A stretch of DNA of 64,000 nucleotides from Candidatus Woesearchaeota archaeon (GTDB lineage: Archaea > Nanobdellota > Nanobdellia > Pacearchaeales > GW2011-AR1): the NCBI GenBank assembly GCA_964385425.1, contig CAYLOQ010000001.1:1411-65410 (forward strand), in the 5' to 3' direction. The translations under genes were made by a program, and so were the position numbers. Positions 418 to 14,127 of the stretch are shown piece by piece; position 1 is the stretch's first letter; every line of letters starts with the position of its first letter. The notes under the pieces were generated by a model. That model did not search any database and was not told the origin of the DNA. It saw nothing but the letters and a program-made list of their open reading frames with translations.

Positions 418-431
418 ACGCCCACGCCGAG
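418..431. repeat. Copy 1 of the GC-rich motif ACGCCCACGCCGAG (matches the tRNA-Asp 3' end)
   Basis: It is immediately flanked by a TATA-like box. The region 392-431 is nearly identical to 3191-3228, including TAGAAATCTTATTATATAAAGAT. It lies 36 nt upstream of the ATG of the partial ORF at 1-382. Confidence 0.7.
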
Positions 432-556
432 CGGTTAAGATTTGTTTAACGCCCTTATTTTTATCTTAAAATATACACGTATAATCCCTTTTTAAAATGG
501 GGTTGTTACCCAATGGGGTGCGGAAGATGAAATCATCTCAAAATTTTTTGTATTTT

Positions 557-1360
557 CTATATCCCACTCTGCCAATCTTTCAAAATATCCCTTGCTGCCC
601 TATCAGAATTAACTTCACCACCTTTTTTCAAAAAACCTTTTTTCTTTCCAATCTTTTCAATTAAATCCTCTGCATTATCAAATTTCATTTTATAAAATTC
701 CTCTAACTCTTTCTTATCGCTCTTTACAATTTCATTAAGTGCAAGTTCTGGATTCTTAACTTGATTATGCGACCTCCCACCAACCTTAACATGCCTTGCT
801 ATTTTTTCCTCATTTGTCGTAGAATATTCGTCAGAAGAAATAACCCCTGGAGAATCTAACAAGACTATACTTTCTGTAAGTCTTAATTTCTGAATCCCTT
901 TTGTAAACCCCGCCTCAGAACTTGTTTTCGCCGAATTCTTTCCAATTAAAAGATTAATCAAAGAACTCTTCCCAGTATTAGGATACCCAATAACCCCCAC
1001 CCGAACACGACGATAATCTCCTTCCAATTTCACCCTTGCTGCTTCTGCTTTAATTTTATTTCTTAACTCTGTAATTCCTGTTCTCTTTTTACATGAAACA
1101 AAAACTCGCGGATTCAAACTCTTGTCTTTTTTTCGCGTGAGGTCAGATTTATTCAAAACATAAATCATTTTCTTTCCTTTATCAAAAACCGCCTTTTCAA
1201 TTTCTTTATTTTGCATCTCTTTCACAAACCGCGCATCAAGAATCTCTAAAACAATATCAGAAGTCTCAATTATCTCCCCCAATAACTCAGGATATTTCCC
1301 TCTCTGCTTTCTGATATTCTTTAATCTTTTCCCAGAACGAGCTTGTCTCCTTGTTGCCAT
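557..1360 (-). CDS. Circularly permuted GTPase, RbgA/YlqF/Nug1-like ribosome-biogenesis GTPase
   Basis: The G4 motif NKSD precedes G1 GYPNTGKSS and G3 DSPG, the circular-permutation order. A DARF(V) motif is present, and the N-terminus is basic. Confidence 0.7.
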   Translation of the reverse strand: MATRRQARSGKRLKNIRKQRGKYPELLGEIIETSDIVLEILDARFVKEMQNKEIEKAVFDKGKKMIYVLNKSDLTRKKDKSLNPRVFVSCKKRTGITELRNKIKAEAARVKLEGDYRRVRVGVIGYPNTGKSSLINLLIGKNSAKTSSEAGFTKGIQKLRLTESIVLLDSPGVISSDEYSTTNEEKIARHVKVGGRSHNQVKNPELALNEIVKSDKKELEEFYKMKFDNAEDLIEKIGKKKGFLKKGGEVNSDRAARDILKDWQSGI

Positions 1361-1518
1361 AAAAAATTAAAGAGATAATAGTTTATTAAATAAACGCAAA
1401 CCAACAATCTTATAAACCTAGAATTTTGTTTAATATTATTATATATTGTTAAAGTCTTGGAGCTTAGCTACAAAGGCTTGGTTTCAAGAATAATTCTTGA
1501 AAATAATAATTAATTAAA

Positions 1519-2901
1519 ATGAAAACGTTTAAAGAACTCGGACTAAGTAGTGAGTTTGTATCTGTGCTTGAAAAAGACAAGATTACAACTCCTTCGGAAA
1601 TTCAGGAAAAAACAATTCCCATAGTCTTAGCAGGGCGAGATGTGATTGGAGGTTCTGCGACAGGTTCTGGAAAAACTCTTGCGTTTGCCTCAAGCATGAT
1701 AGAAAATCTTGAGAAAAGCGGAAGAATTCAAGCATTAATTTTAACACCAACAAGAGAACTTGCTGAACAAGTTTCAAATGCAATCTCAAAATTCTCCAGA
1801 CACAAAAAATTAAATGTTCTTCCTATTTATGGAGGAGTTAATATTAAATCTCAGATTAGAAAAATTCATAGCACAGATATCATTGTGGGAACTCCAGGAA
1901 GAATTTTAGACCACATGCGAAGGGGAACCTTAAATTTAGATTATGTTAAATCTCTTGTTTTAGACGAAGTTGATAGAATGTTTGATATGGGATTTCAAAG
2001 GGATGTTGAAAGAATTCTTGGTCAATGTCCCAAGAAAAGACAGACAATGCTTTTTTCAGCGACGATATCTGCTGAAATAAATTATCTTGCTAAAAAATAC
2101 ACTCAAAAACCAGCAGAGGTTTCTATTCAATCACACATCGACCCATCAAAACTTAAACAAACCTACTACAATGTTTTAGATGGTTTGAAGTTTTCATTAT
2201 TTGTTTATTTGTTAAAAAAAGAAAAAAATAATCTAGTAATGGTATTCTGCGGAACAAGACGTAATGTTGATTTTGTTGCAAATAATCTGATTAATCTTGG
2301 AATTAATGCGAAGGCGATTCACGGAGGGATGATCCAAAATAAAAGAACAAGAGTTATGGATGAGTTTAATTCAGAAAATGGTGTGAATGTTTTAGTGTGC
2401 ACAGACGTAGCTGCAAGAGGACTTGATATTTTTGGGGTGAGCCACGTATACAATTATGATTTACCAAAAACAAGTTCAGATTATATTCATCGAATCGGCA
2501 GAACAGCCAGAGCAGGACGAGATGGAATTGCAATTAGCATCTTATGCAGCAGAGATTATGAAAACTTTGGGAATATTTTAAGAGATAAAGAATTAAAAAT
2601 TAACGAGGTGAAAACTCCCTTTTTTGAAAGAGTTAGAATGATTACTAAAACTGGAAATAAAAAAAGATATTCTGATTCAAGGCAAAGATACCAAAGTCGT
2701 GGGAGAAGTAATGGACAAAGAAGAGATAGCAGAAGAAGTAAAAGTGGAGGGAGGAGTTTTAGTGGTGGAAGAAAATATAGTGATAATAAAGCAGATAGAG
2801 GAGAAAGAAAAAGTTTTGGAAGACATCCAACAAGAGGAAATGTTAAAAGAAAAAATTACAGAAAACATAATTTTAGAAGTGGTGGAAGTCAAGGAAGATG
2901 A
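1519..2901 (+). CDS. DEAD-box ATP-dependent RNA helicase with an RG/RS-rich C-terminal tail
   Basis: Q-motif TPSEIQ, motif I GSATGSGKT, Ia PTRELA, II DEVD, III SAT and VI HRIGRTARAG are all present. The C-terminus is a low-complexity R/G/S-rich tail. Confidence 0.85.
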   Translation: MKTFKELGLSSEFVSVLEKDKITTPSEIQEKTIPIVLAGRDVIGGSATGSGKTLAFASSMIENLEKSGRIQALILTPTRELAEQVSNAISKFSRHKKLNVLPIYGGVNIKSQIRKIHSTDIIVGTPGRILDHMRRGTLNLDYVKSLVLDEVDRMFDMGFQRDVERILGQCPKKRQTMLFSATISAEINYLAKKYTQKPAEVSIQSHIDPSKLKQTYYNVLDGLKFSLFVYLLKKEKNNLVMVFCGTRRNVDFVANNLINLGINAKAIHGGMIQNKRTRVMDEFNSENGVNVLVCTDVAARGLDIFGVSHVYNYDLPKTSSDYIHRIGRTARAGRDGIAISILCSRDYENFGNILRDKELKINEVKTPFFERVRMITKTGNKKRYSDSRQRYQSRGRSNGQRRDSRRSKSGGRSFSGGRKYSDNKADRGERKSFGRHPTRGNVKRKNYRKHNFRSGGSQGR

Positions 2902-2936
2902 TAAGATTAAAGAAAATTATTTTTTAATTCCTTTCC

Positions 2937-3182
2937 TCAATCAAACCAACCCAACTTCTCGTCCTTTGGCAATTTCTTTATTGCATACTCGCATTTACAC
3001 GCACCTGATTTGTCCCTGCACTGCTTAGCCCGAAGTAATTTCTTAAAACCTTTTTGAAAAACATATTTACTTCCCTTCCCCTCAGCATGCGTATTCATCC
3101 GCGCGTCAACATCTATCGTCACCCCTGTATAAAACGAACCATCCCCACATTCAAGAATATAAACATACCATTGTTTTTTCAT
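2937..3182 (-). CDS. GIY-YIG nuclease domain protein
   Basis: YVYIL...GSFYTGVT...R...H at the N-terminus fits the GIY-YIG pattern. It is a small 81-aa protein with a Cys-rich C-terminus. Confidence 0.65.
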   Translation of the reverse strand: MKKQWYVYILECGDGSFYTGVTIDVDARMNTHAEGKGSKYVFQKGFKKLLRAKQCRDKSGACKCEYAIKKLPKDEKLGWFD

Positions 3183-3214
3183 ATAATTATTTAGAAATCT
3201 TATTATATAAAGAT

Positions 3215-3228
3215 GCGCCCACGCCGAG
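3215..3228. repeat. Copy 2 of the motif (GCGCCCACGCCGAG) with extended conserved flanks on both sides
   Basis: The left flank (3191-3214) matches copy 1 and holds the TATA box of the GIY-YIG gene. The right flank (3229-3262) matches 9078-9104 and contains the hairpin GGACA-aaag-TGTCC. Confidence 0.7.
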
Positions 3229-3291
3229 GGTAGGACAAAAGTGTCCCCATTAGGGTAAAGAAAAAGGTGTCTACACCCCTAAAATTTGTGG

Positions 3292-4287
3292 TCACCTAGT
3301 TAATTTTTTTAAAGCTGAATATTCTTTGATCAATAAATCAATGGTTGGCCTTAGATTCCCTTTTGTTTGATACTCTTGTAAGGATTCATAATATTGTCTT
3401 TGATTTCTTAGATCAATATTTACTGGAGGAAAGTCATTTTTAAGTAAGATATTATTCAGCAACAACCTCCCAACCCTACCATTCCCATCAGCGAAGGGGT
3501 GTATATTTTCAAATTGGTTATGAACAACAGATGCTAATACGAGTGCAGGGTATCTTGATCTATTTTTATTATACCATCTGATAAGTTCATTAAGTAAAGA
3601 ATTTATTCTTGATTGAGGAGCTCCAAAATGAATTATATTCCCATAGCCATCTCTAACAACAACTTCTTGTCCTTTAATTCTGAATTTGCCTGCAAAATCT
3701 TTTGAATTTTTAAAAACAATTTTATGTAAATCTAAAATAAATTTTATTGATATATGTTCCCCTGTTTTTCTTATAAATTTAATAGCATCATTCACACCAT
3801 AAGTTTCTGCTATATCTTGCTTTGATTTTTTTGGCCATTTTCCCTTCTCCAAGATATCTTTTACTTCTTTTTTTGTTATTTCACTACCTTCTATTGCATT
3901 AGTATTATACGAAAAAAGCTCTGAAAAAGTTCTCCATTGTTCTTCCGATAAATGGATTATTCTTAATTTCTGACTCTTTTCTAGATTTTCAATCAGTTTT
4001 ATTTCTTTTTTTGATAACGGTGTTTTAAGAGGATCTTTAATTATTTTATATTGTTCAATTTCCTCGAGAATTATTTTTTCTGCTTTATCTAGCCTTCCTT
4101 TTAACTGTTCTTCATTTATATTTTTTCCTAGAAACTTCCTTATTTTATTTACTTTTCCATCTTCTCTAAAAGAATGTGCTAAATAATATTTTATTCTGTT
4201 TCCTTCCTTTCTCTTCTCGACATACATAACAACAAATAGGTGACTACATATATAAATCTTTCTATTGTATTGTCTACATACGCCCAC
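3292..4287 (-). CDS. Fic/Doc family protein (AMPylation-type Fic domain)
   Basis: Canonical Fic motif HPFADGNGRVGRLL. The real start is probably the internal Met near 4227 (MYVEKRK...), because the longest ORF overlaps the upstream repeat motif. Confidence 0.8.
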   Translation of the reverse strand: MGVCRQYNRKIYICSHLFVVMYVEKRKEGNRIKYYLAHSFREDGKVNKIRKFLGKNINEEQLKGRLDKAEKIILEEIEQYKIIKDPLKTPLSKKEIKLIENLEKSQKLRIIHLSEEQWRTFSELFSYNTNAIEGSEITKKEVKDILEKGKWPKKSKQDIAETYGVNDAIKFIRKTGEHISIKFILDLHKIVFKNSKDFAGKFRIKGQEVVVRDGYGNIIHFGAPQSRINSLLNELIRWYNKNRSRYPALVLASVVHNQFENIHPFADGNGRVGRLLLNNILLKNDFPPVNIDLRNQRQYYESLQEYQTKGNLRPTIDLLIKEYSALKKLTR

Positions 4288-4293
4288 GCCGAG
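4280..4293. repeat. Copy 3 of the motif ACGCCCACGCCGAG
   Basis: Upstream of the Fic gene. A TATA-like TTTATATAT box lies about 25 nt further toward the gene. Confidence 0.65.
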
Positions 4294-4333
4294 TGCTATG
4301 GGGTGTAGGACTTCGACTCCCTGTTAGGGAATC

Positions 4334-4347
4334 ACGCCCACGCCGAT
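4334..4347. repeat. Copy 4 of the motif (ACGCCCACGCCGAT variant)
   Basis: 40 nt from copy 3, between the Fic and pentapeptide genes. Confidence 0.6.
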
Positions 4348-4431
4348 AGTAGTTTGGGAGTAGTATAAGAGTGTTATAGTTGGAGAATTTTAATCCCTCC
4401 ATAGCTCAATGGTTCTGTATTAACCACTTAA

Positions 4432-5106
4432 CTATTCTTCACGAAAATCAAATTCTGGTGTAATGGCCTTTAATATAATCTTTTTTTCCCTATTCGTTAC
4501 AATAGTTTTTCTATACCCCCTATCTTCAAACTCACCCTCTCCAAATATTGCCGCTTGTATCCAGGGATTATCCCATAAACCTACCGATCCTCTAAGATCG
4601 GCCCCGCCAAACCTTACTCCATAGAGATTCGCATCTGTAAAATCTGCTTCTCTTAGATCAGCTCCATAGAGCTGAGCTTCACGGAGTTCTGTCTTTCTAA
4701 GACTTACTCCCCTTAGATCAGCCATGTGAAGAGTTACTCCTTCAAGATTTGCTAAACTAAGATCAGCCCCTTGAAGCCTTGCTCCTTTAAGATTAGCCTG
4801 ATAAAGCCTTGCTCCTTTAAGATCCGCTCCTTCAAGATTTGCATTTACCCCCCTTAAATAAGGCATATGAAGATCTCTTGCAATTAAACCTTGAAAATTA
4901 GAGTCTTCTATTGTTATTGGGTTCTCTCTGAAATAATCATTAATTAAATACTCTCTTAATACTCTAAAGCTCGGATGTCCACTTAAATTTAAATTCCTTC
5001 CCACTCTTCTAGAGAAATCTCTTCTTCCACTCAATATCCGCATAATTTCATCTGCAGTTATTGGTCTTAATTCAACACTGGTTTCTGTTTGTTCCATAAT
5101 TCCCAC
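4432..5106 (-). CDS. Pentapeptide repeat protein
   Basis: Tandem A(D/N)LxG pentapeptides, e.g. ADLKGARLYQANLKGARLQGADLSLANLEG... Confidence 0.8.
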   Translation of the reverse strand: MGIMEQTETSVELRPITADEIMRILSGRRDFSRRVGRNLNLSGHPSFRVLREYLINDYFRENPITIEDSNFQGLIARDLHMPYLRGVNANLEGADLKGARLYQANLKGARLQGADLSLANLEGVTLHMADLRGVSLRKTELREAQLYGADLREADFTDANLYGVRFGGADLRGSVGLWDNPWIQAAIFGEGEFEDRGYRKTIVTNREKKIILKAITPEFDFREE

Positions 5107-5141
5107 ACAAATTCTTCCTTTTTAAACTTTATGATATAAAT

Positions 5142-5155
5142 ACGCCCACGCCGAG
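5142..5155. repeat. Copy 5 of the motif ACGCCCACGCCGAG
   Basis: Immediately adjacent to the TATTTATATCA TATA-like box upstream of the pentapeptide-repeat gene. Confidence 0.65.
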
Positions 5156-5249
5156 AATAATACACTTTTGCATATCTAAGAGGTGTACTTTTGTGCCTCT
5201 TTAAATGACTAAATGAATAATGTTTAAATAATTTTGTATAAAAATAAAT

Positions 5250-8006
5250 TTATCTATATGTTACTTTTCTTATTTTATAATGTTTCTTAATCTTTTCCCT
5301 TTTAATTTCATTTTTTAGAATCATCCTGTTTAATTTTTGCTGCATTTTTGATGATTTCTTATCTTCATAAAATCTTTTATTAGAATAATCCTGCCCAAAC
5401 CTTATTTCTCCACGGATATTAAGAGATTTGAAAAGGACAATTATCATTAAAACAATAAACCCTATTAACAAAATTAATTTAGTGAAACTCCCAAATAATA
5501 TTGATGAATTTTCTTGAGTATTAATGTTATTTGATAGGATTTCTATAAGGAAAGAAGAGCCATAATATATTGAAATGATTAATGCAATTATTGAAACCAA
5601 AGAAATTATGATTATGAAAACTGTTTTTATGATTCCTCCAAAATTTGACTTATGATAATTGTATGGTTCTCTCTTCCTTTTCATCACTGAAATTATTATA
5701 AAAGTAGCTATTGCCAATAAAGATATGATTCCAATAAATAAAATAGGAATTTTTCCTTTAGGACCAAATGGAAAATATTCTCCTATATCAGGAATTCCTA
5801 TAATTCCTCCTGTTATTGATGGTGTATCTCCTTCATTATCTATTACTCTACCCCCACCAGAACTACTAGCACCACTTATGGTAAAGGTGTCAAAGAATTT
5901 ATCAGTTCTACTCCCTAAATTATAATATCCTGCTTCACATTGGAAAATATATGATTGAGTTGCTATAAATGTAGAAGGAACAAGAATTGCTTTATTTACC
6001 TTAAGAAGTGTCCTGTTAATCATCTGATTAAAATTAAATGAGTTATAATTATTAACTCCATCATTTAAATAACAAGTAAAATCAACTTCTTTTTCAACAA
6101 CCTGAGAGTCCTCTACTTGTGCAGATATTGAGCAAGTCATTTCGCTTCCTGAACTTGCTTGGGCAGGGCAATCAACCGAAAGATGGAAAGTCCCTGTTTT
6201 GGATTCTACTCCTTCAAGAGCAGAAGCTTGTCTTTGTTGGACTTGTAAATTTAAATCACTTGAATATCTACATGAATCTGAATTATTTACTATTATTGTG
6301 AAAGTATTATATGGTTCTACATCTGCAAATCCAATTAAAGTCATTCTATTGGTTTCTTCAAAGAAAGAAACATCTACTTCAGAAGTTCCTGCGTGTTTAA
6401 AATAAGGTATTGTAATTATATCATTTATTGTGCTTGAACTTCCTGCATCAGTTTCAATTCTTTTTTCTATACATCCTGCTATAACATCTCTATCTGTATT
6501 TTCAAAACAATATCTTGCTATAAATTTTGTTTCGTCTATTCCAAAATAATCATAAGTTATATTTACCTCCAATTCATTACAAGCACTAATTGATGAATCA
6601 AATGCACTTGTAGATATATTCACAACATCAATTATTTTAATATAGGGTGTTCCAACTTCATGCCCATAATAATTAAATTCATCTGATTCTAACTCTAAAT
6701 CTTGATCAAAATCTTCTAAATGTAAATGAAAATTAATATCAAAATCATTCCCTCCTACCACATGTGTAGGTAATAAAAACTCCTCTGAACATCTTTCAAC
6801 TACGCCCTCATCAATTTGTGGTTTTACAGAAGTCCTCATGATCACACTTTCTCCTTGTAATGTTTCCCCTGTGTCTAAACTTATTGGGAAAAAATGTTGT
6901 TCTAAGGTATCATCATCAAAACTTACTTCATTCACAAAAATAAACTTTTCTTCTGTGAAAGTATTATTTAATAATATACATAATGATGCAGGTTTTCCAC
7001 CAGTTAAAAATCCTTGACCATTTGTAGTTTTATTTCCTTCTACAGAATTATTGAAAGTACCCCAAGAAATATCTTCTTGGTTTATTCTTGTTGGTCCATC
7101 TGTTATTTGAATTTTTCCACCGAATTCATCTTTTAAATAAACAGCAGGGTACATCCCTTGACTTGCAGTAAAATCATCATGGAATCCTGTAGCGTTAGCC
7201 CATTTTTTATTTATCATAAAATCATTTAAATCATCAATTAAAAATCCCCTAGTTCCCTCCCCTGAAGAACCCTCTGCTGAGTTAGAACATTTATTGTCAT
7301 TCCCTGTTGGACAAAAACAATTAATATCTGTTAGATATTGAACCCCTGCTTTAAAATGGGCATCATCTATTTCAAAATCTACATCTAAATCTCCATTATG
7401 ATTTGATATTTCTTCTATTCCTGAAACAATAGTATTCCCACCAATTGTTTCTATATCGATTCTACAAGAAGCACCAGCAGTTCCAATTTCTGTTCCGTTT
7501 TTTACTTTTGCAGAAATTGCTAAAGTTGTTCCAATGAAGTTTTGAGTGCTTATTACAATCTCTTCTATTAATAAATCACTTCCTGTTGCAGCATTTATTG
7601 TTGCATTACTTTGTCCTGTTAAACCTCCTCCACCAGATAGTGTTGCATTAAGAACATTTCCATAAACAGATATATAAGAAGAATTAATTACGAAAGATTC
7701 AAAGAATTCATTATTTGGAGATGTAGTTGAACTTGGAGTTGTGCCTGTTGAAGTATCTACCACATGACCTGTCGCATTTGTCCAATTCACAGTATATGCT
7801 TGATTTTTCTCATTTCCTGTAGTTATTTCCATTTCTAAAGTCGCAGTTGAACCTTCAACATAGACTTCAGAATCTAAAACTGCCGTTGAAGCAGAAACAA
7901 AATTTATTAAGAATATAAATGAAAACAAAGATATTCCTAAAAGTAGGATCACAAATTTAGTTTTCATTTTTACCCCCCTCCCAATAATGTAATTTTGCTC
8001 TACCAA
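5250..8006 (-). CDS. Large secreted/surface protein of about 900 aa with an N-terminal signal peptide, three C-terminal TM helices and a basic cytoplasmic tail
   Basis: Probable start at the MKTKFVILLLGISLF... Met near 7967. The protein is Thr/Ser/Asn-rich with many N-x-S/T sequons. The C-terminus has hydrophobic segments followed by a K/R-rich tail, the same topology as the giant protein at 42624-53513. Confidence 0.6.
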   Translation of the reverse strand: MVEQNYIIGRGVKMKTKFVILLLGISLFSFIFLINFVSASTAVLDSEVYVEGSTATLEMEITTGNEKNQAYTVNWTNATGHVVDTSTGTTPSSTTSPNNEFFESFVINSSYISVYGNVLNATLSGGGGLTGQSNATINAATGSDLLIEEIVISTQNFIGTTLAISAKVKNGTEIGTAGASCRIDIETIGGNTIVSGIEEISNHNGDLDVDFEIDDAHFKAGVQYLTDINCFCPTGNDNKCSNSAEGSSGEGTRGFLIDDLNDFMINKKWANATGFHDDFTASQGMYPAVYLKDEFGGKIQITDGPTRINQEDISWGTFNNSVEGNKTTNGQGFLTGGKPASLCILLNNTFTEEKFIFVNEVSFDDDTLEQHFFPISLDTGETLQGESVIMRTSVKPQIDEGVVERCSEEFLLPTHVVGGNDFDINFHLHLEDFDQDLELESDEFNYYGHEVGTPYIKIIDVVNISTSAFDSSISACNELEVNITYDYFGIDETKFIARYCFENTDRDVIAGCIEKRIETDAGSSSTINDIITIPYFKHAGTSEVDVSFFEETNRMTLIGFADVEPYNTFTIIVNNSDSCRYSSDLNLQVQQRQASALEGVESKTGTFHLSVDCPAQASSGSEMTCSISAQVEDSQVVEKEVDFTCYLNDGVNNYNSFNFNQMINRTLLKVNKAILVPSTFIATQSYIFQCEAGYYNLGSRTDKFFDTFTISGASSSGGGRVIDNEGDTPSITGGIIGIPDIGEYFPFGPKGKIPILFIGIISLLAIATFIIISVMKRKREPYNYHKSNFGGIIKTVFIIIISLVSIIALIISIYYGSSFLIEILSNNINTQENSSILFGSFTKLILLIGFIVLMIIVLFKSLNIRGEIRFGQDYSNKRFYEDKKSSKMQQKLNRMILKNEIKREKIKKHYKIRKVTYR

Positions 8007-8163
8007 CAGGCCTAATTCTAATTAATTTTGCCCCCTTTAATTCTGCAAGAACGACGGCAACAGTGTTCCTAGAAATTTTTAAACCTCTTGCAATATCAAT
8101 TATTGTAAGTCCGTCTGTATTTTTTCTTAGAAGACTCTTAACTAATTCACCTTTTGTTTTCAT
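7957..8163 (-). CDS. Small winged-helix (MarR/ArsR-like) DNA-binding regulator
   Basis: 68 aa; LTIIDIARGLKISRNTVAVVLAELKGAKLIRIRPVG is HTH-like. It overlaps the start of the downstream surface-protein gene, so the two are probably co-transcribed. Confidence 0.5.
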   Translation of the reverse strand: MKTKGELVKSLLRKNTDGLTIIDIARGLKISRNTVAVVLAELKGAKLIRIRPVGRAKLHYWEGGKNEN

Positions 8164-8166
8164 TGT

Positions 8167-8266
8167 GCGTTAACGCTTAGTTTTATAAGTTATCTTTAAA
8201 ACTTTGTTTTATAAGTCATTTTTAAAGTTTAATGATATAAGTTATCTTTATTAATTATCTTTAATG
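8167..8266. promoter_or_regulatory. Palindrome GCGTTAACGC plus three to four tandem 25-26-bp iterons (TTTTATAAGTTATCTTTAAA) upstream of the wHTH regulator gene
   Basis: Direct repeats at 8181-8202, 8207-8227 and 8233-8253, with a partial fourth at 8254-8266. A 10-bp perfect palindrome lies at 8167-8176. Confidence 0.5.
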
Positions 8267-8390
8267 TTTATTATTGGTGCACAATAGTTTATAAATGTTT
8301 TTAATCGGTTTATGATATCAAAAAGATTTCAATAAAGCCCAGAAAGAGCGTTGGGATAATTTTAAAAAGACTTAACCCAGCTTATTTTTT

Positions 8391-8906
8391 ATGGATAATC
8401 GTAATGGAGAAGTTAGTCCTCTTGAAATAATTAGTGGGCAAGGAAGTATGGAAACCCCCGAATCATTTAGAGATAAGGCGAGGGGGTGGGTTGTAGATAC
8501 ATCCATAGCAGTTCTATGGAGTAATCTTGTTTTTGCACCAGGTGATTATGTTTTAGGTGGTTTGTGGGGGGATGAATTTGTTAAACAAAGAGTAGGAATG
8601 AGTTTGTTTAATTTGGCGTTTGGTGGGGTATTTGGAAAATTTAGAAATTATTGGACAAAAAATGTAATGAAGGCCACACCAAATAGTTCAAGATTTTACA
8701 AGGCAGTTAGTGATACCACAGCAGGTGCTATTTTTTATGGTCCTATTTATGTTGGACTTATTAAATCCCATGGGGCTTCATGGGAAGAAACATTTGCAGC
8801 ATTAGGGGGAGGACTTCTAACAGCCGCAATCACAGGTAGGCCCTATGGTTTGTGCCAAGATAAATGGAGAAAATTATTTGGAGTTAGGCCAGCTCTAGAA
8901 GAATAG
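8391..8906 (+). CDS. Hypothetical protein, paralog of 21771-22325
   Basis: Shares aligned blocks (K.R.GM..F, ASWEE/ASLEE...GGL, PYG...WRKLF/PF.EFWRTKVF) with the ORF at 21771-22325. Confidence 0.5.
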   Translation: MDNRNGEVSPLEIISGQGSMETPESFRDKARGWVVDTSIAVLWSNLVFAPGDYVLGGLWGDEFVKQRVGMSLFNLAFGGVFGKFRNYWTKNVMKATPNSSRFYKAVSDTTAGAIFYGPIYVGLIKSHGASWEETFAALGGGLLTAAITGRPYGLCQDKWRKLFGVRPALEE

Positions 8907-9063
8907 TTATAAATAAAACTCCCTCTACTCTCCCAGAAAGGGCGTTGAGAAGGTTTATTCTATGTGTTTATATGGATCTCGTTTCATATTGTGTACAATT
9001 TACAGATCTTTTTATAGAACCTGTATGTTTATTGTACACCCCACTAAAATGCAAAAATGTAGT

Positions 9064-9077
9064 ACGCCCACGCCGAG
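9064..9077. repeat. Copy 6 of the motif ACGCCCACGCCGAG with a hairpin-bearing extension
   Basis: 9064-9104 is near-identical to 3215-3262 (GAGGGTAGGA[CT]AAAAGTGTCCC). It lies between convergent genes, so it is not obviously a promoter. Confidence 0.65.
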
Positions 9078-9150
9078 GGTAGGATAAAAGTGTCCCAGTT
9101 GGGGGGTTAATATAAATCTAAACTCACCTTTAATAGAAGCTCAATAGTAA

Positions 9151-9459
9151 TTATTTCTGAACCGATAATAAATTCTTAACTGCTCCAACTAAAGAACCCT
9201 GTTGAAAATTTTTTGCTAAACTATCTATAACCGCAAGTAATCCAGGAGTATAAATCGCAATTTGTGCAACATTTGATAATTCAATTTCTTGACCTCTTAA
9301 TACCCCTGGTGCTAAAAAGCTACCTAAACAAATTGCTCCCTGAACAGCATAATTTCGGATTATTTCTCCATTACTTCTATTTTGAGAATCGTATAGCTCG
9401 TCATTGCTTCTAGCACTATACCATTCTTTTTGATCATGCAAAAAATTTTCTAATGCCAT
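9151..9459 (-). CDS. Hypothetical protein
   Basis: 102-aa ORF with a TATA-like box upstream. I recognise no motif. Confidence 0.4.
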   Translation of the reverse strand: MALENFLHDQKEWYSARSNDELYDSQNRSNGEIIRNYAVQGAICLGSFLAPGVLRGQEIELSNVAQIAIYTPGLLAVIDSLAKNFQQGSLVGAVKNLLSVQK

Positions 9460-9523
9460 GGAAATAAATGATAATAAGTGATTTATAAACTTTTCTATTT
9501 TGTCTTAATTCTTGAGTAACAAA

Positions 9524-9537
9524 GCGCCCACGCCGGG
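9524..9537. repeat. Copy 7 of the motif (GCGCCCACGCCGGG, the variant matching the tRNA in 13 of 13 core nt)
   Basis: Lies between two minus-strand genes, about 45 nt upstream of a TATA-like box for the ORF at 9151-9459. Confidence 0.6.
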
Positions 9538-9576
9538 GATAGAACTTTTTGTTAGATTTGGTGGGAGTTAAATTGT

Positions 9577-9996
9577 TTATTTACTTCTTTCAGAAACATT
9601 ACAATCAACATCAACATATCTTACTTCTACTTTAAATCCCAATTCTCTCAATTTATGTATTGTATTCTTTTGTTGATTATCCAGATGGGAAGAATTTGAT
9701 TTTACTTCCACAAAAGAAATTTCCTTTGTGTCTTGATCGATACAAACTAAATCAGGAAAACCAAGAATATTATCCTTTATTATTTTGATAACTTCTTTAA
9801 TTCTCTTTGTATCAATTTCCTCCCAAATCATCATATTTTGGATTCTTCCAATCATGGTTGTATTTATTGGGCTTATAACTTTATCATTAGTAAAATCAAC
9901 CCTCACAACATTTTGATTTTCTTCTTTCTTAAGTTTTGAAACAATATAATCTTCTGCAATTCTTCCTAAACTTGTTGTTGATATATCTTCATTCAT
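9577..9996 (-). CDS. Hjc-like PD-(D/E)xK nuclease (Holliday-junction-resolvase / restriction-endonuclease fold)
   Basis: N-terminal G..AE..V motif, then PDLVCIDQD...VEVKS, which matches the PD-x(n)-(D/E)xK catalytic core of the Hjc family. It has a longer insert than canonical Hjc. Confidence 0.5.
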   Translation of the reverse strand: MNEDISTTSLGRIAEDYIVSKLKKEENQNVVRVDFTNDKVISPINTTMIGRIQNMMIWEEIDTKRIKEVIKIIKDNILGFPDLVCIDQDTKEISFVEVKSNSSHLDNQQKNTIHKLRELGFKVEVRYVDVDCNVSERSK

Positions 9997-10044
9997 AGAA
10001 TATGGTGTTGAATTTGCCTATTTATACCTTGCTAAATGTTATGT

Positions 10045-10575
10045 TCAAGAAATAAATCTAAAACACTCATTTAAGCATTCTTTTTGAAAGCTATAGATTT
10101 TATTGTAATGTTTGATTAGAAAATAATCATTGGTGTATCTATTAAGAGGACTGTATTCTCCTTTTGGATATCTTGAAGAATTTACATGAGATGATAAAAT
10201 TTGTTGTAAGAGAAAATTTGGAGTAGTAATTTTCCCAACCCTTAAATTAGATTTACCAGAATCTATTTCAGATAATAGTGATTTGATTACTTCTATGATA
10301 GCTAAAAATATTTTTTCATTATCTATAGGAGTATTCTCTAAAATTTTAGTTTCTTCTTTCAAATCGTCATTCACCATATTTTTGTAAATATCTAGAGTTT
10401 TATGGCCATGCTTGAAGATTCCAGTAATACCTTTAGTTGTCTTTTCCACACTTTGTTGTAATAAGAAAATAGATTGAGGATATTTTCCATTTTCATAAAG
10501 TATCTTGGAAGACTCCAAATCTTCTAAGGCCATTTTTATAAAATTTTCATTTTCTTCTTTCATTTTTAACCACAT
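10045..10575 (-). CDS. HEPN domain protein
   Basis: The N-terminal helix pair ALEDLESSKILYENGKYPQSIFLLQQSVEKTTKGI matches the HEPN N-terminal pattern. It overlaps the start of the upstream secreted-nuclease gene by 10 nt. Confidence 0.55.
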   Translation of the reverse strand: MWLKMKEENENFIKMALEDLESSKILYENGKYPQSIFLLQQSVEKTTKGITGIFKHGHKTLDIYKNMVNDDLKEETKILENTPIDNEKIFLAIIEVIKSLLSEIDSGKSNLRVGKITTPNFLLQQILSSHVNSSRYPKGEYSPLNRYTNDYFLIKHYNKIYSFQKECLNECFRFIS

Positions 10576-11552
10576 AAACTCTCACAGGGAACTCCATCAT
10601 CATCACCATCTAATTCATTAACATCATAACTACAAGCATCAAATACATCCATTACTTCTGAACAAGAATTGAAATCTCCACAATTGTAAACATTTCCTCC
10701 ACAGCCAACCGTATTTACTATAACATCATCAGTCTTTGCAGATGAAGTATCCCATATCCCTATTTCTTTACCTTTTGCAATACTCTCTGCATCTTCTATT
10801 ATTGAACACTTAGAAGTATCTGGAGAATAAGGATAAGCTCTCCCATAACCTTGTAGAACAATTCTTAGATTAATAAAACAATTAGCTAAATCTGTGCAAT
10901 CTTTTTTAGTATAGATATATCTTAATAATCTTCCATACCTGTCTGTTTCTGAAATATCTTTTTCAAGATAAACTTCTTTATTAAAAATAAGATTTGTAAG
11001 ATAATCTTTTGCTTCTTGATAACCATCTTCATAAGTCTCGGGGGTATCAATGCAAATTAATCTTACTCTTTCACCTGAACTTAATTCTATAGTATCCCCA
11101 TCAATAACTCTTGTTACTTTATACCAATTTTTAGTTTCTTCAAACGTTGGAGTTTCAATAATTTCATCAGAAACAATTTCTTCTTCTGGCTCTTGGATAC
11201 ATTCTCCATTTTCACAGCCATAAAGACAATGATAATTATTAAACCACGAAGTGCCGCAATCTGAATATTGATATTTTTTTTGGATATAATTCCCATTACA
11301 TCCATATTTATCTAAATATTCTGCTTTACAATTTTCCTCTCCAATGTTAGAAATAATTTTCCCAGTTGGTATCGGGTTTTCTCTCTCTTCTTCAGTTTTC
11401 TCAGGTATAGTTTCTTCTTGAATATCCTCTTCAGACGCTTCTTCTTTAATAACATTAGAAGTGATTGTAGGTTCTTCATCTGGAAGAAAAATTCCTGCAA
11501 ATGCGAAAACAAGAACAATTCCAATAACCCATAATGCTGTTTTTGTTTTCAT
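10566..11552 (-). CDS. Secreted staphylococcal-nuclease-like (SNase/thermonuclease) protein with a C-terminal Excalibur Ca-binding domain
   Basis: Signal peptide and Cys-rich N-region. The SNase core is VIDGDTIEL...VRLICIDTPE..., and the Excalibur motif is CGDFNSCSEV...DGDDDGVPCESLC. Confidence 0.75.
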   Translation of the reverse strand: MKTKTALWVIGIVLVFAFAGIFLPDEEPTITSNVIKEEASEEDIQEETIPEKTEEERENPIPTGKIISNIGEENCKAEYLDKYGCNGNYIQKKYQYSDCGTSWFNNYHCLYGCENGECIQEPEEEIVSDEIIETPTFEETKNWYKVTRVIDGDTIELSSGERVRLICIDTPETYEDGYQEAKDYLTNLIFNKEVYLEKDISETDRYGRLLRYIYTKKDCTDLANCFINLRIVLQGYGRAYPYSPDTSKCSIIEDAESIAKGKEIGIWDTSSAKTDDVIVNTVGCGGNVYNCGDFNSCSEVMDVFDACSYDVNELDGDDDGVPCESLCG

Positions 11553-11556
11553 TTAA

Positions 11557-12312
11557 TCAGAGTCCACTACTACCTCTTATATCACATTTAGTTATATTTT
11601 TTTCAATTTTACAATAAATGTTTGGTTCGTAGTCAATTGGTTCTGGGAGGATTGTATCACAACCACCACTACAATAAACTAAAATCTGTAGATTATATTC
11701 TGTATTAAATCCAAGTCCAGAAATGATATAATCTTTTGATTCCCCAATTCCCACAGAATTATTTTCTTTGTAATATAAAAGAAACCATGCTTCAGCTTCC
11801 CTTATAATAATGGAATTGGTGCTGGATAAATCTAAAGTTAGCTGTTTGGTTTCCTTAAACAAAGAAGGAATCTCTCCTATCCATATTCCACCCCTCTCTA
11901 AACCAAGAATACGATAGTAAACTAATACATTATAGGCGAGGTTATCTCTCGAATTACTAACAGATATATTTAATGTTTTTTTAATGGGATCAGAGACTGG
12001 TTCAGATACAACAATCAAAGGATTCTCTTCATTGGTTAATTTAAAAACAACCCAACCACTTAAAAGCCCAGAAACTAGCATTCCAATTATTGTTAATACT
12101 GTCAACCTTAATTGAAATTTATGAGTTTTAAAATTAAGATATTGTCGCTGGAGTCTATCATCATAATTGGGAGCTAGACCATTAGGATAATTTCTCTCAT
12201 CTTTCCTTGCTCTTCTATGTCTCCACCTTTCCGCTTCATCAAGATATTTGTCAAAAGCTTTGTAATCTCTTTTTTCAAACCAGTTTTTTATTCTATTCCA
12301 TTCTTTTCCCAT
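11557..12312 (-). CDS. Membrane protein with a single TM and an extracytoplasmic domain
   Basis: Basic N-terminus, then the TM segment LTVLTIIGMLVSGLLSGWVVF. No recognisable motif. Confidence 0.45.
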   Translation of the reverse strand: MGKEWNRIKNWFEKRDYKAFDKYLDEAERWRHRRARKDERNYPNGLAPNYDDRLQRQYLNFKTHKFQLRLTVLTIIGMLVSGLLSGWVVFKLTNEENPLIVVSEPVSDPIKKTLNISVSNSRDNLAYNVLVYYRILGLERGGIWIGEIPSLFKETKQLTLDLSSTNSIIIREAEAWFLLYYKENNSVGIGESKDYIISGLGFNTEYNLQILVYCSGGCDTILPEPIDYEPNIYCKIEKNITKCDIRGSSGL

Positions 12313-12424
12313 AAACTTAACACAAATTGTGTAATTTTATATCTTTGCTTTGCTTTGAAATCTCCTTCAGAATTGCATAAAATACTTATAATATGCAATA
12401 TTTAAAAGAGACAATATCTTAAAT

Positions 12425-13276
12425 TTGTATATGATTGTCAAAGCAAATTATTCTAATAAAGATAGTCTCTATACACAATTTAAAGAGAGTATGAAAATAA
12501 CCTCTAAACTGGATTCTGCAGAGAAAGGTTCTGAAATAAGACTTGATTTATCTGGAATTGGAAAACTTTTACCTTGTTCAATTGTTCTTTTATCAAATAA
12601 AATAATTGAATGTAGAAAAAAAGGAAAAAAAGTTAGCATAATCTATCCTAAAAATCTTTTAATTTCAAGGTACCTTGTTGATTTGGGCTTTGGATCTGAG
12701 TGGAATGGAAAGCTAAGAAAAAATTGTTATCCTATTGCTTCTTTTACAAACAAAGAAGACTTATCTAAAATAACAAATGATATGATTAATGCTATGAATA
12801 GGGTTATACCGAAAGCTTTTGGGGGAGGGGTGATGTATTTATTATCAGAGGTAATTGATAATGTTGAAGAACATTCCAGATTTGAATACGCTTCCGTAAT
12901 GGCTCAATATTATAGAAAAGATCACATTCTTGACATATGTATTTTAGATGATGGGATTACAATTCCAACTCTTTTTAGAGAAAACAAGATTAATTTTATT
13001 AGTGATAGAGATGCTATCCATAAAGCACTTGGTGGAACTTCAACAAAAAAAGAAGGTGGAAGAGGATTTGGATTGAGAACCTCTAAAAAATTAATTCTAA
13101 GGGGTTTGAGAGGTGAATTACATATAATATCAAGAAATGGTTTTGTATCTCTTAATGCCAGGAGAATAGAAGGAGAGAGAACACCTCTGATAAAAAAATC
13201 CTTCAAAGGAACAATGTTATATTTTAGATTTAGGGTTCCTAAGAAAACTTTAAATATCCATGAATATACAGAGTAA
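12425..13276 (+). CDS. GHKL-superfamily (histidine-kinase-like) ATPase
   Basis: N-box EVIDNVEEHS, G1 DDGITIP and G2 GGRGFGL. No His-phosphotransfer domain is evident. Confidence 0.6.
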   Translation: MYMIVKANYSNKDSLYTQFKESMKITSKLDSAEKGSEIRLDLSGIGKLLPCSIVLLSNKIIECRKKGKKVSIIYPKNLLISRYLVDLGFGSEWNGKLRKNCYPIASFTNKEDLSKITNDMINAMNRVIPKAFGGGVMYLLSEVIDNVEEHSRFEYASVMAQYYRKDHILDICILDDGITIPTLFRENKINFISDRDAIHKALGGTSTKKEGGRGFGLRTSKKLILRGLRGELHIISRNGFVSLNARRIEGERTPLIKKSFKGTMLYFRFRVPKKTLNIHEYTE

Positions 13277-13592
13277 TATGAAAAAAAAAACATTTCTTTT
13301 ATTTGATTATTTCCAAAATAATGTGGTGATTCGTAATCGAATGAGAGAATTTTTTAAGAAAGTAGAAAAGGAAAAAGCAGAGGATATAGTAATAGATTTT
13401 AAAAATATAGACTTTATTTCTCGTTCTTGTAGCGATGAGTATTTAAAACTTAAAGCAAAATCCAAAAAATTCTTTAAAGAGACGAATGTCAAAGACAATG
13501 TAAGAAAGATGTTGGAACAAGTATACAAAAGTCTAATTCATGTTGTTTATGAATCTAATTCAAATAAGAAATTCATTCCCATAAAGCATTAA
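13260..13592 (+). CDS. Small STAS-like (DUF4325-like) partner protein
   Basis: 110 aa. IDFKNIDFISRSCSDEYL resembles a STAS/anti-sigma-antagonist core. It overlaps the 3' end of the GHKL ATPase gene. Confidence 0.4.
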   Translation: MNIQSNMKKKTFLLFDYFQNNVVIRNRMREFFKKVEKEKAEDIVIDFKNIDFISRSCSDEYLKLKAKSKKFFKETNVKDNVRKMLEQVYKSLIHVVYESNSNKKFIPIKH

Positions 13593-13704
13593 ACTTATTC
13601 TGTAAATCGGAAGGGCTTATATGAGTATAAATTGTTGTGTATCTATCCTTGAATGTCCCAAGAGCTGTTGAACTTCTCTAAGGAATTGTAACACAAAGTA
13701 TATA

Positions 13705-13776
13705 CGCCCACGCCGGGAGTCGAACCCGGGTTACATCCGCGACAGGGATGAGTCATAGCCGTTAGACCACGTAGGC
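13705..13776 (-). tRNA. tRNA-Asp (anticodon GUC)
   Basis: The reverse complement folds as GCCUACG / D-arm / CAUCC-CUGUCGC-GGAUG (anticodon GUC) / CCGGG-UUCGACU-CCCGG / CGUGGGC + discriminator G. CCA is not encoded. Confidence 0.85.
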
Positions 13777-14127
13777 ACAATCATCAATGTTAGAATTTGT
13801 TTTTAAAGTTTTTGTTAAGGTTATTGGTTATGGTTCAATGGTTGAAACAATATTTGCTATAATAGAAGAGAATAACCCAAAAGCAGCAATTAATAATCCA
13901 ACATTGTCTAAAGCATTTAATTGTAGTAAAAGAATTATGAAGTAGATGAATATAATAAAATTGATTATTTGTGAAAAGATAGATAACGCATCCCCAACCT
14001 TCATTTTATATTATCGCTCTTATTATCCCATAAACTAATAAACCCAAGGCGATAATTCCCAAAATCCATGCGATGATTTGAAATATTTCTAAAGTCCTCT
14101 TTTTCATATTAGATTGAATTTCTATTT

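Follow-up and report, generated by a model that had tools for sequence, protein, structure and literature searches.

An apparent archaeal relative of the bacterial VapK/VapS and CapK/CapS kinase and STAS-protein pairs, encoded without an attached effector

The window analysed here, a stretch of 64,000 nucleotides (nt) from contig CAYLOQ010000001.1 of a Candidatus Woesearchaeota archaeon, carries on its plus strand a kinase gene, here called K (12431..13276), followed by the gene of its putative substrate, S (13278..13592). As judged from profile comparisons, the pair appears to be an archaeal relative of the bacterial pairs VapK/VapS and CapK/CapS that lacks an attached effector. K is 281 amino acids (aa) long when read from the ATG at 12431 (an alternative TTG at 12425 would give 283 aa) and combines a STAS domain with a GHKL domain of serine-kinase-like type, and S is a single-domain STAS/DUF4325-like protein of 104 aa (110 aa from an alternative ATG at 13260). 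The gene calls were taken from the 505-kb metagenomic scaffold ZHAO22-1_SAMN11268109 that contains the window, on which the gene callers place a 281-aa gene and a 104-aa gene 1 nt apart; both are real genes and together they form a two-gene operon. An initial annotation made from the letters alone had described two open reading frames (ORFs) within 12425-13592, and both were recovered on the plus strand (12425/12431-13276 and 13260/13278-13592). It had described the smaller one as an overlapping ORF of 110 aa; the ORF is present, and the length and the overlap are probably to be corrected. The start of S is probably the ATG at 13278, which is favoured because the source-contig gene calls use it and almost every relative starts in the same column of the alignment, and with this start the junction reads TAA-T-ATG, a spacer of 1 nt with no overlap. 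The archaeal context that had been assumed is borne out by the S10 protein of the host, which passes the uS10_euk_arch equivalog with 141.7 bits (cut-off 96).

The relationship to the bacterial pairs was examined with the protein sequences of VapK, VapS, CapK and CapS taken from the appendix of PMC13373217. The K profile, built from 70 sequences, aligned with VapK over 249 columns that include both domains (hhalign 96.7%, E 3.6e-10), and with CapK over 158 columns starting at CapK residue 114, that is from the last STAS strand onward and through the GHKL domain (hhalign 95.6%). When the S profile was compared with the sequences in the PDB, the best solved relative and only relevant match was 9z7o chain A, the Escherichia VapS in a VapS-VapC structure (E 0.014); the K profile returned only marginal DesK matches from the same source. 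The DUF4325 score of VapS itself is 62.7 bits. When a VapS fragment was run against plasmids with tblastn, no match was obtained.

The two reference systems, bacterial immune modules that sense DNA damage, were described by Chambers et al. (EMBO J 2026, PMC13373217). CapK, with the order helix-turn-helix (HTH), STAS and GHKL, is activated via W68 by single-stranded DNA (ssDNA), which occupies the groove that separates STAS from GHKL, a conserved aromatic residue helping to bind it there, and it phosphorylates S54 of CapS (STAS plus winged HTH), upon which this repressor leaves the DNA; CapK and CapS regulate CBASS, Bub, Thoeris and other immune operons. VapK (STAS-GHKL, with F54) is proposed to phosphorylate S48 of VapS and thereby free the PIN toxin VapC, VapS being a STAS domain with a short C-terminal helix whose C-terminal region blocks VapC. 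The phosphorylation sites of both, VapS S48 and CapS S54, lie at the start of STAS helix 2, and the mutations CapK W68A and VapK F54A abolish function. All CapKS and VapKSC cases reported are bacterial, vapKSC being an anti-phage toxin-antitoxin (TA) system from Escherichia sp. E4736 and other bacteria (PMC13373217). An earlier survey of PIN proteins had recorded a VapC clade "transcriptionally coupled to DUF4325 genes" (PMC5499597).

By analogy with these systems, we consider it rather probable that K is activated by stress and phosphorylates S as its dedicated substrate, changing what S binds. A stress cue, which in CapK is ssDNA, would switch K on, K would phosphorylate S on S50 (or S48), and phosphorylated S would release a partner that it had held. 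As a DNA-binding domain is missing from S and the pair has no linked toxin gene, this partner would be the product of another locus or would be K itself. For the module as a whole, the most likely role is that of a mobile switch in stress or virus defence.

K begins directly with a STAS-like domain (12431..12745, plus strand, residues 1-105), without an N-terminal HTH, and this domain is presumed to be the signal sensor by comparison with the characterised kinases. It is followed by a GHKL (Bergerat-fold) kinase domain of anti-sigma type (12752..13273), in which the alignment columns place the N-box at E140/N144/H148 (12848-12874), the G1 box at D173-x-G175 (12947-12955) and the G2 box at G212-x-G214 (13064-13072), all on the plus strand. 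E140, N144, H148, D173, G175, G212 and G214 are invariant in the 70-sequence alignment, and the same columns are kept in 45-46 of the 46 kinase sequences formed by the window K and 45 from related loci. The GHKL active site thus looks intact, including the N-box Asn that is equivalent to CapK N218. The Pfam model HATPase_c is passed narrowly by the window K (27.6 versus 26.4 bits). Together these observations agree with the initial annotation of K as a histidine-kinase-like ATPase; its description of the kinase was sound for the GHKL part and missed the N-terminal STAS domain. A reading of K as a two-component histidine kinase was rejected, as the N-terminal domain is STAS-like and not a helical hairpin and there is no dimerization and histidine phosphotransfer (DHp) domain; no response regulator was found near K among the ORFs and annotations of the window. 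A MORC/MutL-type reading was rejected as well; for both rejections the grounds were the missing DHp domain and the fold ranking, in which the top structural matches of K are SpoIIAB, RsbW and UsfX. No NCBIfam match was obtained for K or S, and each of the two matches PHROG families that have no assigned function.

The residue corresponding to the VapK sensing aromatic sets the window K apart. The K-family motif D-L-S-x-x-x-[W/F]-x-x-P aligns with C-R-F54-L-R-P57 of VapK, whose residue numbering was confirmed in the authors' AlphaFold 3 (AF3) coordinate file. The aromatic column is occupied by W, F or Y in 67/69 sequences and in 43/44 relatives. In the window K the motif is DLSGIGKLLP (residues 39-48, 12545..12574, plus strand, placed by hhalign columns) and K45 (12563-12565) stands at the conserved Trp/Phe position that aligns with VapK F54. 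Because a Lys replaces the sensing aromatic residue, the window copy may be blind to the signal or may have been retuned, if the analogy with VapK applies.

S has a STAS fold plus a 12-residue tail and matches RsbV, RsbS and SpoIIAA. On Pfam DUF4325 (PF14213) the window S scores 12.7-12.9 bits against a gathering cut-off of 23, compared with 29.4 bits for ORFC of the Methanothermobacter prophage psiM100, a member of the S family. A profile made from four S relatives retrieved 930 proteins, several S-family matches carry a precomputed PF14213 annotation, and for members of the family the matches are as good as E 1.7e-7 with DUF4325 and E 5e-4 with STAS. From these profile matches S would be a member of a divergent DUF4325 subfamily; its nearest relatives come from Woese-, Pace- and Nanoarchaeota. 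The small ORF had been called STAS/DUF4325-like from the start, and this is supported by the STAS fold, while the DUF4325 part would follow from family members such as psiM100 ORFC.

In anti-sigma factor antagonists the phosphorylated serine lies at the start of helix 2, Ser58 of SpoIIAA being an example. In S the motif ISRS (residues 47-50, 13416..13427, plus strand) lies at the N-terminus of helix alpha2, which in the structure model starts at residue 49. The family motif reads F-I-S-R-S-(C/F)-A-(D/H)-(E/Q)-Y, and S48, R49 and S50 are invariant in 37 sequences. S50 (13425-13427) is likely to be the phospho-acceptor, with S48 as the alternative; S50 is preferred because SRS50-F-A-D-E matches DSS54-F-P-R-E of CapS better in an alignment made by eye, from which this preference is inferred. 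The C-terminal tail (13554..13589, plus strand) closes with a short hydrophobic stretch, KFIPIKH, and falls in a part of the model with a predicted local distance difference test (pLDDT) of about 50 (residues 91-104). The last residues of aligned relatives are recurrently hydrophobic too (FIPA, LIPA, MIPV, ITL), and the tail could be a docking peptide, positionally like the C-terminal region of VapS that blocks VapC.

The structural matches of both proteins bear on classical partner-switching, in which K would inhibit an unlinked regulator (for example a TFB/TBP-type factor) and unphosphorylated S would displace that regulator. The resemblance of K to SpoIIAB, RsbW and UsfX, that of S to RsbV, RsbS and SpoIIAA, and the lack of an effector linked to the pair are all as this explanation would have it. 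K has, however, an extra STAS domain and is homologous along its full length to VapK/CapK, kinases that work via a substrate and not by sequestering a target. No PP2C phosphatase, the equivalent of RsbU/SpoIIE, was seen beside the pair in the window, in the annotated related loci or among the recurrent neighbours, no target gene was seen in the annotated neighbourhoods or among the recurrent neighbours, and the patchy distribution over prophages and islands suits an accessory module better than a core regulator. We regard partner-switching as quite unlikely.

The pairing of the two genes was examined from both sides. In the first four matches for which flanking DNA was available the two genes occurred together in 4/4. 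A scan with the S motif over one genome per GTDB species gave 56 loci, 55 of them archaeal and one from Bacteroidota; the archaeal loci span Woese-, Pace- and Nanoarchaeota, Nitrososphaerales/Nitrosopumilus, Micrarchaeia, Aenigmatarchaeota, Nanohaloarchaea, Thermoplasmata and methanogens. A K homologue lies directly upstream of S on the same strand in 47 of the 53 loci with enough upstream DNA, and S stands alone in 6/53. A reverse scan of metagenome contigs with K motifs gave 48 loci, 43 of them with enough downstream DNA, and S follows K directly in 41/43; the two exceptions without S are one chimeric-looking fragment and one outlier of 23% identity. At the K/S junction of related loci the spacing is 1 nt in 14, there is an overlap of 4 or 17 nt in 6, and elsewhere the distance is mostly <60 nt; the usual range is from 1 to about 50 nt. 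A word-indexed search with K alone had found 3 relatives only, and the family was revealed by an exhaustive profile search, in which 374 clusters (at 50% identity) were obtained at E <1e-30 and 1781 at E <1e-10, nearly all of them 250-300 aa long. The S-motif scan of IMG/VR returned psiM100 as its sole match, and because of this the archaeal S subfamily does not seem to be mainly virus-borne. Two results would have spoken against the initial annotation, a small protein without a STAS fold and a pair that is not conserved elsewhere; both were looked for and neither was obtained, the co-occurrence being 47/53 from S to K and 41/43 from K to S.

No third gene recurs beside K/S in about 58 loci, as judged from an all-against-all clustering of 521 neighbouring ORFs, and the idea of a linked effector gene was rejected on this ground. 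The sole recurrent neighbours in this clustering were HEPN/nucleotidyltransferase (HEPN/MNT) pairs, found in 6-7 loci.

Several related loci show a damaged kinase gene. A frameshift or an in-frame stop interrupts K beside an intact S in L012, L014, L024, L039, L041 and L062; the loci L039 and L041, from two separate metagenome-assembled genomes (MAGs), share the same stop in K, the related L040 is intact, and in L060 only a kinase remnant is found upstream of S. Broken K genes beside an intact S may reflect selection against the kinase, or errors in the MAGs.

A self-contained TA-like pair would give such a picture: activated K would be harmful, through promiscuous phosphorylation or consumption of ATP, and S would be a decoy substrate or antitoxin, with no third protein involved. 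The decay is asymmetric, with S lacking K in 6 loci and no convincing K without S, and the disrupted kinases just listed, one stop being shared by two MAGs, the absence of a conserved third gene, the loss of the conserved sensing residue in the window K and the frequency of TA modules among the neighbours all fit. The numbers are small, though, MAG assembly errors could explain some of the frameshifts, and in VapKSC the toxin is VapC and not the kinase. We consider a TA-like pair unlikely.

As to the phosphorylation switch that we prefer, several observations weigh against it. No effector is linked to K/S, there being no recurrent third gene in about 58 loci. The direct hhalign comparison of S with VapS reached 66% and comprised the N-terminal 43 columns only, and an ungapped register puts VapS S48 opposite the invariant Arg49 of S and not opposite a Ser. 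The Lys at the position equivalent to VapK F54 occurs in the window K alone among more than 110 relatives. The PADLOC release searched does not list the pair among its defence systems, and no model matched convincingly, as K and S gave matches at noise level only (REase_II, E 0.025; ABC permease, E 0.005). For VapK, too, the activation by ssDNA comes from modelling, with one supporting mutant (PMC13373217). For the archaeal K/S family, phosphorylation, ssDNA binding and a phenotype are inferred from the characterised relatives.

A more far-reaching form of the phosphorylation switch is that K and S constitute a complete, self-sufficient immune or stress switch of archaea and prophages, in which K senses nucleic-acid damage and phosphorylated S unleashes an unlinked effector or the toxicity of K itself. 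This is possible, and we put it forward tentatively, as something we would not expect on balance.

The pair is located in mobile or defence-type DNA. In Methanothermobacter prophage psiM100, K and S are ORFB and ORFC of the "inserted fragment IFa", which is present relative to psiM2, and the psiM100 record annotates them as similar to MTH315/MTH316. The third gene of IFa, ORFD (L063 4907-6385, 492 aa), is without a match in Pfam. It aligns from end to end with phrog_10674 (E 1e-224) and weakly with an acetyltransferase phrog, and other K/S loci do not have it as a neighbour. In Methanomassiliicoccus the genes run integrase, K/S, MmeI-type restriction-modification (R-M) gene, terminase. One Nanoarchaeota lineage has PIN/MazE and HepT/MNT modules near K/S in a variable flank, and another K/S lineage has HepT/MNT, Pif1 and PIN nearby. 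The pair is also present on the Halobaculum marinum plasmid NZ_CP119990.1, where the K homologue is annotated as a "hypothetical protein" (WP_276239583.1); the S ORF of this plasmid (L065 5856-6149, about 67137-67430) follows it directly, was missed by RefSeq and matches the S profile at E 1.7e-9.

More distant two-gene versions adjoin an integrase in Burkholderia phage vB_E188 and occupy, in Streptococcus agalactiae prophages, the accessory-gene (moron) slot between the lysis genes and paratox; in Bacteroides phage BF1-TP2 a distant pair is annotated as "ATP-binding protein" and "DUF4325 domain-containing protein". Proteins of 293 aa and 112 aa (DUF4325) are reported to be encoded as a pair in a Francisella prophage, with the CI repressor on one side and the integrase on the other (PMC7924643). 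The possible role in signalling or defence that had been suggested from the setting of the window genes agrees with the related loci, which lie in prophages and beside R-M, TA and integrase genes.

Conserved synteny with tRNA-Asp, which adjoins the pair in the window, was rejected: a tRNA-Tyr lies 12 nt upstream of K in L013 (4992-5082), a tRNA-Ser about 135 nt upstream of K in L019 (4590-4671), and other related loci have no tRNA beside them. Because the related loci adjoin different tRNAs or none, independent insertions are indicated and not synteny.

In the window, the genes after S are tRNA-Asp and then serS. The tRNA-Asp(GUC) gene (13704..13777, minus strand; ARAGORN, Rfam 56 bits) faces the K/S pair with its 3' end and is presumed to be an integration target. 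The sequence CGCCCACGCCG, the 3' acceptor end of this tRNA, occurs in 8 exact copies, all on the plus strand, within 419-13715 (starting at 419, 3216, 4281, 4335, 5143, 9065, 9525 and 13705), when none would be expected by chance, and no copy was found elsewhere in the 64 kb. An imperfect direct repeat of the tRNA-Asp 3' end at 9525..9545 (plus strand) is identical to 13705-13725 in 18/21 positions. As this copy matches the tRNA-Asp 3' end, the 4.2-kb block between them (9546-13704) is flanked by direct repeats resembling attachment (att) sites; K and S share it with VRR-NUC, HEPN, SNase and a membrane protein of 251 aa. A search of the window region bounded by the repeats revealed no integrase. 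The accessory setting next to tRNA-Asp, which had been read from the sequence at the outset, is therefore seen as a region marked by insertion and by tRNA-derived repeats.

This setting raises the question of a degenerate remnant, that is, a pair brought in by an element that integrated, and by now in decay and without function in the window genome. In favour of this are the missing integrase, the decayed att-like repeats on either side of the segment, the K45 in place of the conserved aromatic and the K pseudogenes of relatives. Both reading frames are intact nevertheless, all the catalytic and ISRS residues are kept, and the 1-nt junction typical of intact loci is preserved, so that we hold decay of the window pair to be highly improbable.

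Within the repeat-bounded segment a minus-strand block of four genes (9577-12312) is divergent from K/S. It encodes the 251-aa membrane protein, a 328-aa secreted-type SNase/Excalibur nuclease (PADLOC "SNc+LTD", E 1e-18), an AbiV-like HEPN protein (E 4e-5) whose gene overlaps the SNase gene by 10 nt, and the VRR-NUC nuclease; none of these is conserved beside K/S elsewhere. The copies of CGCCCACGCCG lie about 40-140 nt past the 3' ends of minus-strand genes or blocks, which comprise a GTPase with a DEAD helicase, Fic, a pentapeptide protein, a 918-aa protein with AlaE, a 102-aa ORF and the nuclease/K/S block. The array looks like cassettes from serial site-specific integration at tRNA-Asp; counter to this, a search gave no integrase, and there are housekeeping-like genes in the distal blocks. 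In the Nanoarchaeota lineage of L115-L119 (4186-5013), a divergently oriented MMR_HSR1 (YlqF-like) GTPase gene is the direct upstream neighbour of K/S, and in the window a YlqF-like GTPase gene (557-1360) is found 11 kb from K/S, at the far end of the repeat-marked region. It may be the ancestral neighbour of K/S, parted from it by later insertions. On the Nitrososphaerota-type contigs L123-L124 (right end, about 11100-12315) there is a 930-aa eRF1 with Hint/intein and LAGLIDADG, which is unrelated to K/S.

The logic of a kinase plus a STAS protein is already known from CapKS and VapKSC, described in 2026 in bacteria only. New here are a predominantly archaeal two-gene form without an effector and the atypical sensor residue of the window copy. 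The family is sizeable, with 374 K clusters and about 930 S proteins, and archaea (DPANN, Nitrososphaerota, Thermoplasmatota, methanogens) account for almost all genome loci found by the S motif. As the pair is without both of the known outputs, the repressor domain and the PIN toxin, it poses the question of what the phosphorylated STAS protein controls, and the answer could reveal a new class of effector, or the kinase as the effector itself. We know of no experimental study of GHKL-type serine phosphorylation in archaea, and the pair would open a way into it. If the self-sufficient switch outlined above were true, it would be the first signalling pathway of Archaea, the minimal-genome DPANN included, to be described with a serine kinase of anti-sigma type, and a new effector-less class of the CapK/VapK family. 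Cultivable hosts of the pair exist in Methanothermobacter (MTH315/316 and psiM100 ORFB/C), and there is also the Halobaculum plasmid.

Compared with known systems, the likeness to RsbW/RsbV-type pairs of anti-sigma and anti-anti-sigma factors noted in the initial annotation is reflected in the best structural matches of K, and CapK/CapS and VapK/VapS/VapC now provide closer references. SpoIIAB/SpoIIAA and RsbW/RsbV (Bacillus, Mycobacterium) act on a sigma factor, whereas the archaeal host of K/S has none, and because the host is archaeal a sigma factor would not be the target. That the target would be something else had been foreseen, and the closest references also act without sigma factors. 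K further differs from SpoIIAB/RsbW in its extra STAS domain, and K/S in a mobile and patchy distribution.

With CapKS the pair shares the combination of STAS with GHKL and the gene order: the CapKS kinase, a GHKL protein in which STAS is internal, acts on a conserved Ser in the STAS domain of a protein whose gene follows directly, and the S motif SRS-F-A-D-E resembles DSS(54)-F-P-R-E of CapS when aligned by eye. In contrast to CapK, K has no N-terminal HTH. S is without the C-terminal winged-helix DNA-binding domain, and on that account would not be a CapS-type repressor, and no immune operon consistently follows K/S.

The likeness to VapKSC extends further along the kinase, as K and VapK share STAS and GHKL domains without HTH, align over their full length, and have the Trp/Phe plus Pro of the K family in register with F54-x-x-P57. 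S and VapS are alike in that S is about 100 aa long, of STAS/DUF4325 type, has a conserved Ser where helix 2 starts and is briefly extended at the C-terminus; in both systems the kinase gene precedes the STAS gene and there is an association with defence islands or prophages. They differ in that no VapC/PIN gene follows K/S, either in the window or as a recurrent gene in the related loci, in the hosts, which are almost entirely archaeal for K/S and reported only as bacterial for vapKSC, in the helix-2 motif, ISRS(F/C)A(D/H)(E/Q)Y in S versus FAS(48)PFF in VapS, and in the Lys of the window K at the VapK F54 position. ORFB/ORFC of psiM100 and MTH315/MTH316, annotated as hypothetical, are members of the same two families in the same gene order, as the K profile gives ORFB 248 bits and the S profile gives ORFC 88.7 bits, and ORFB, unlike the window K, keeps the conserved Trp (LSWVYP).

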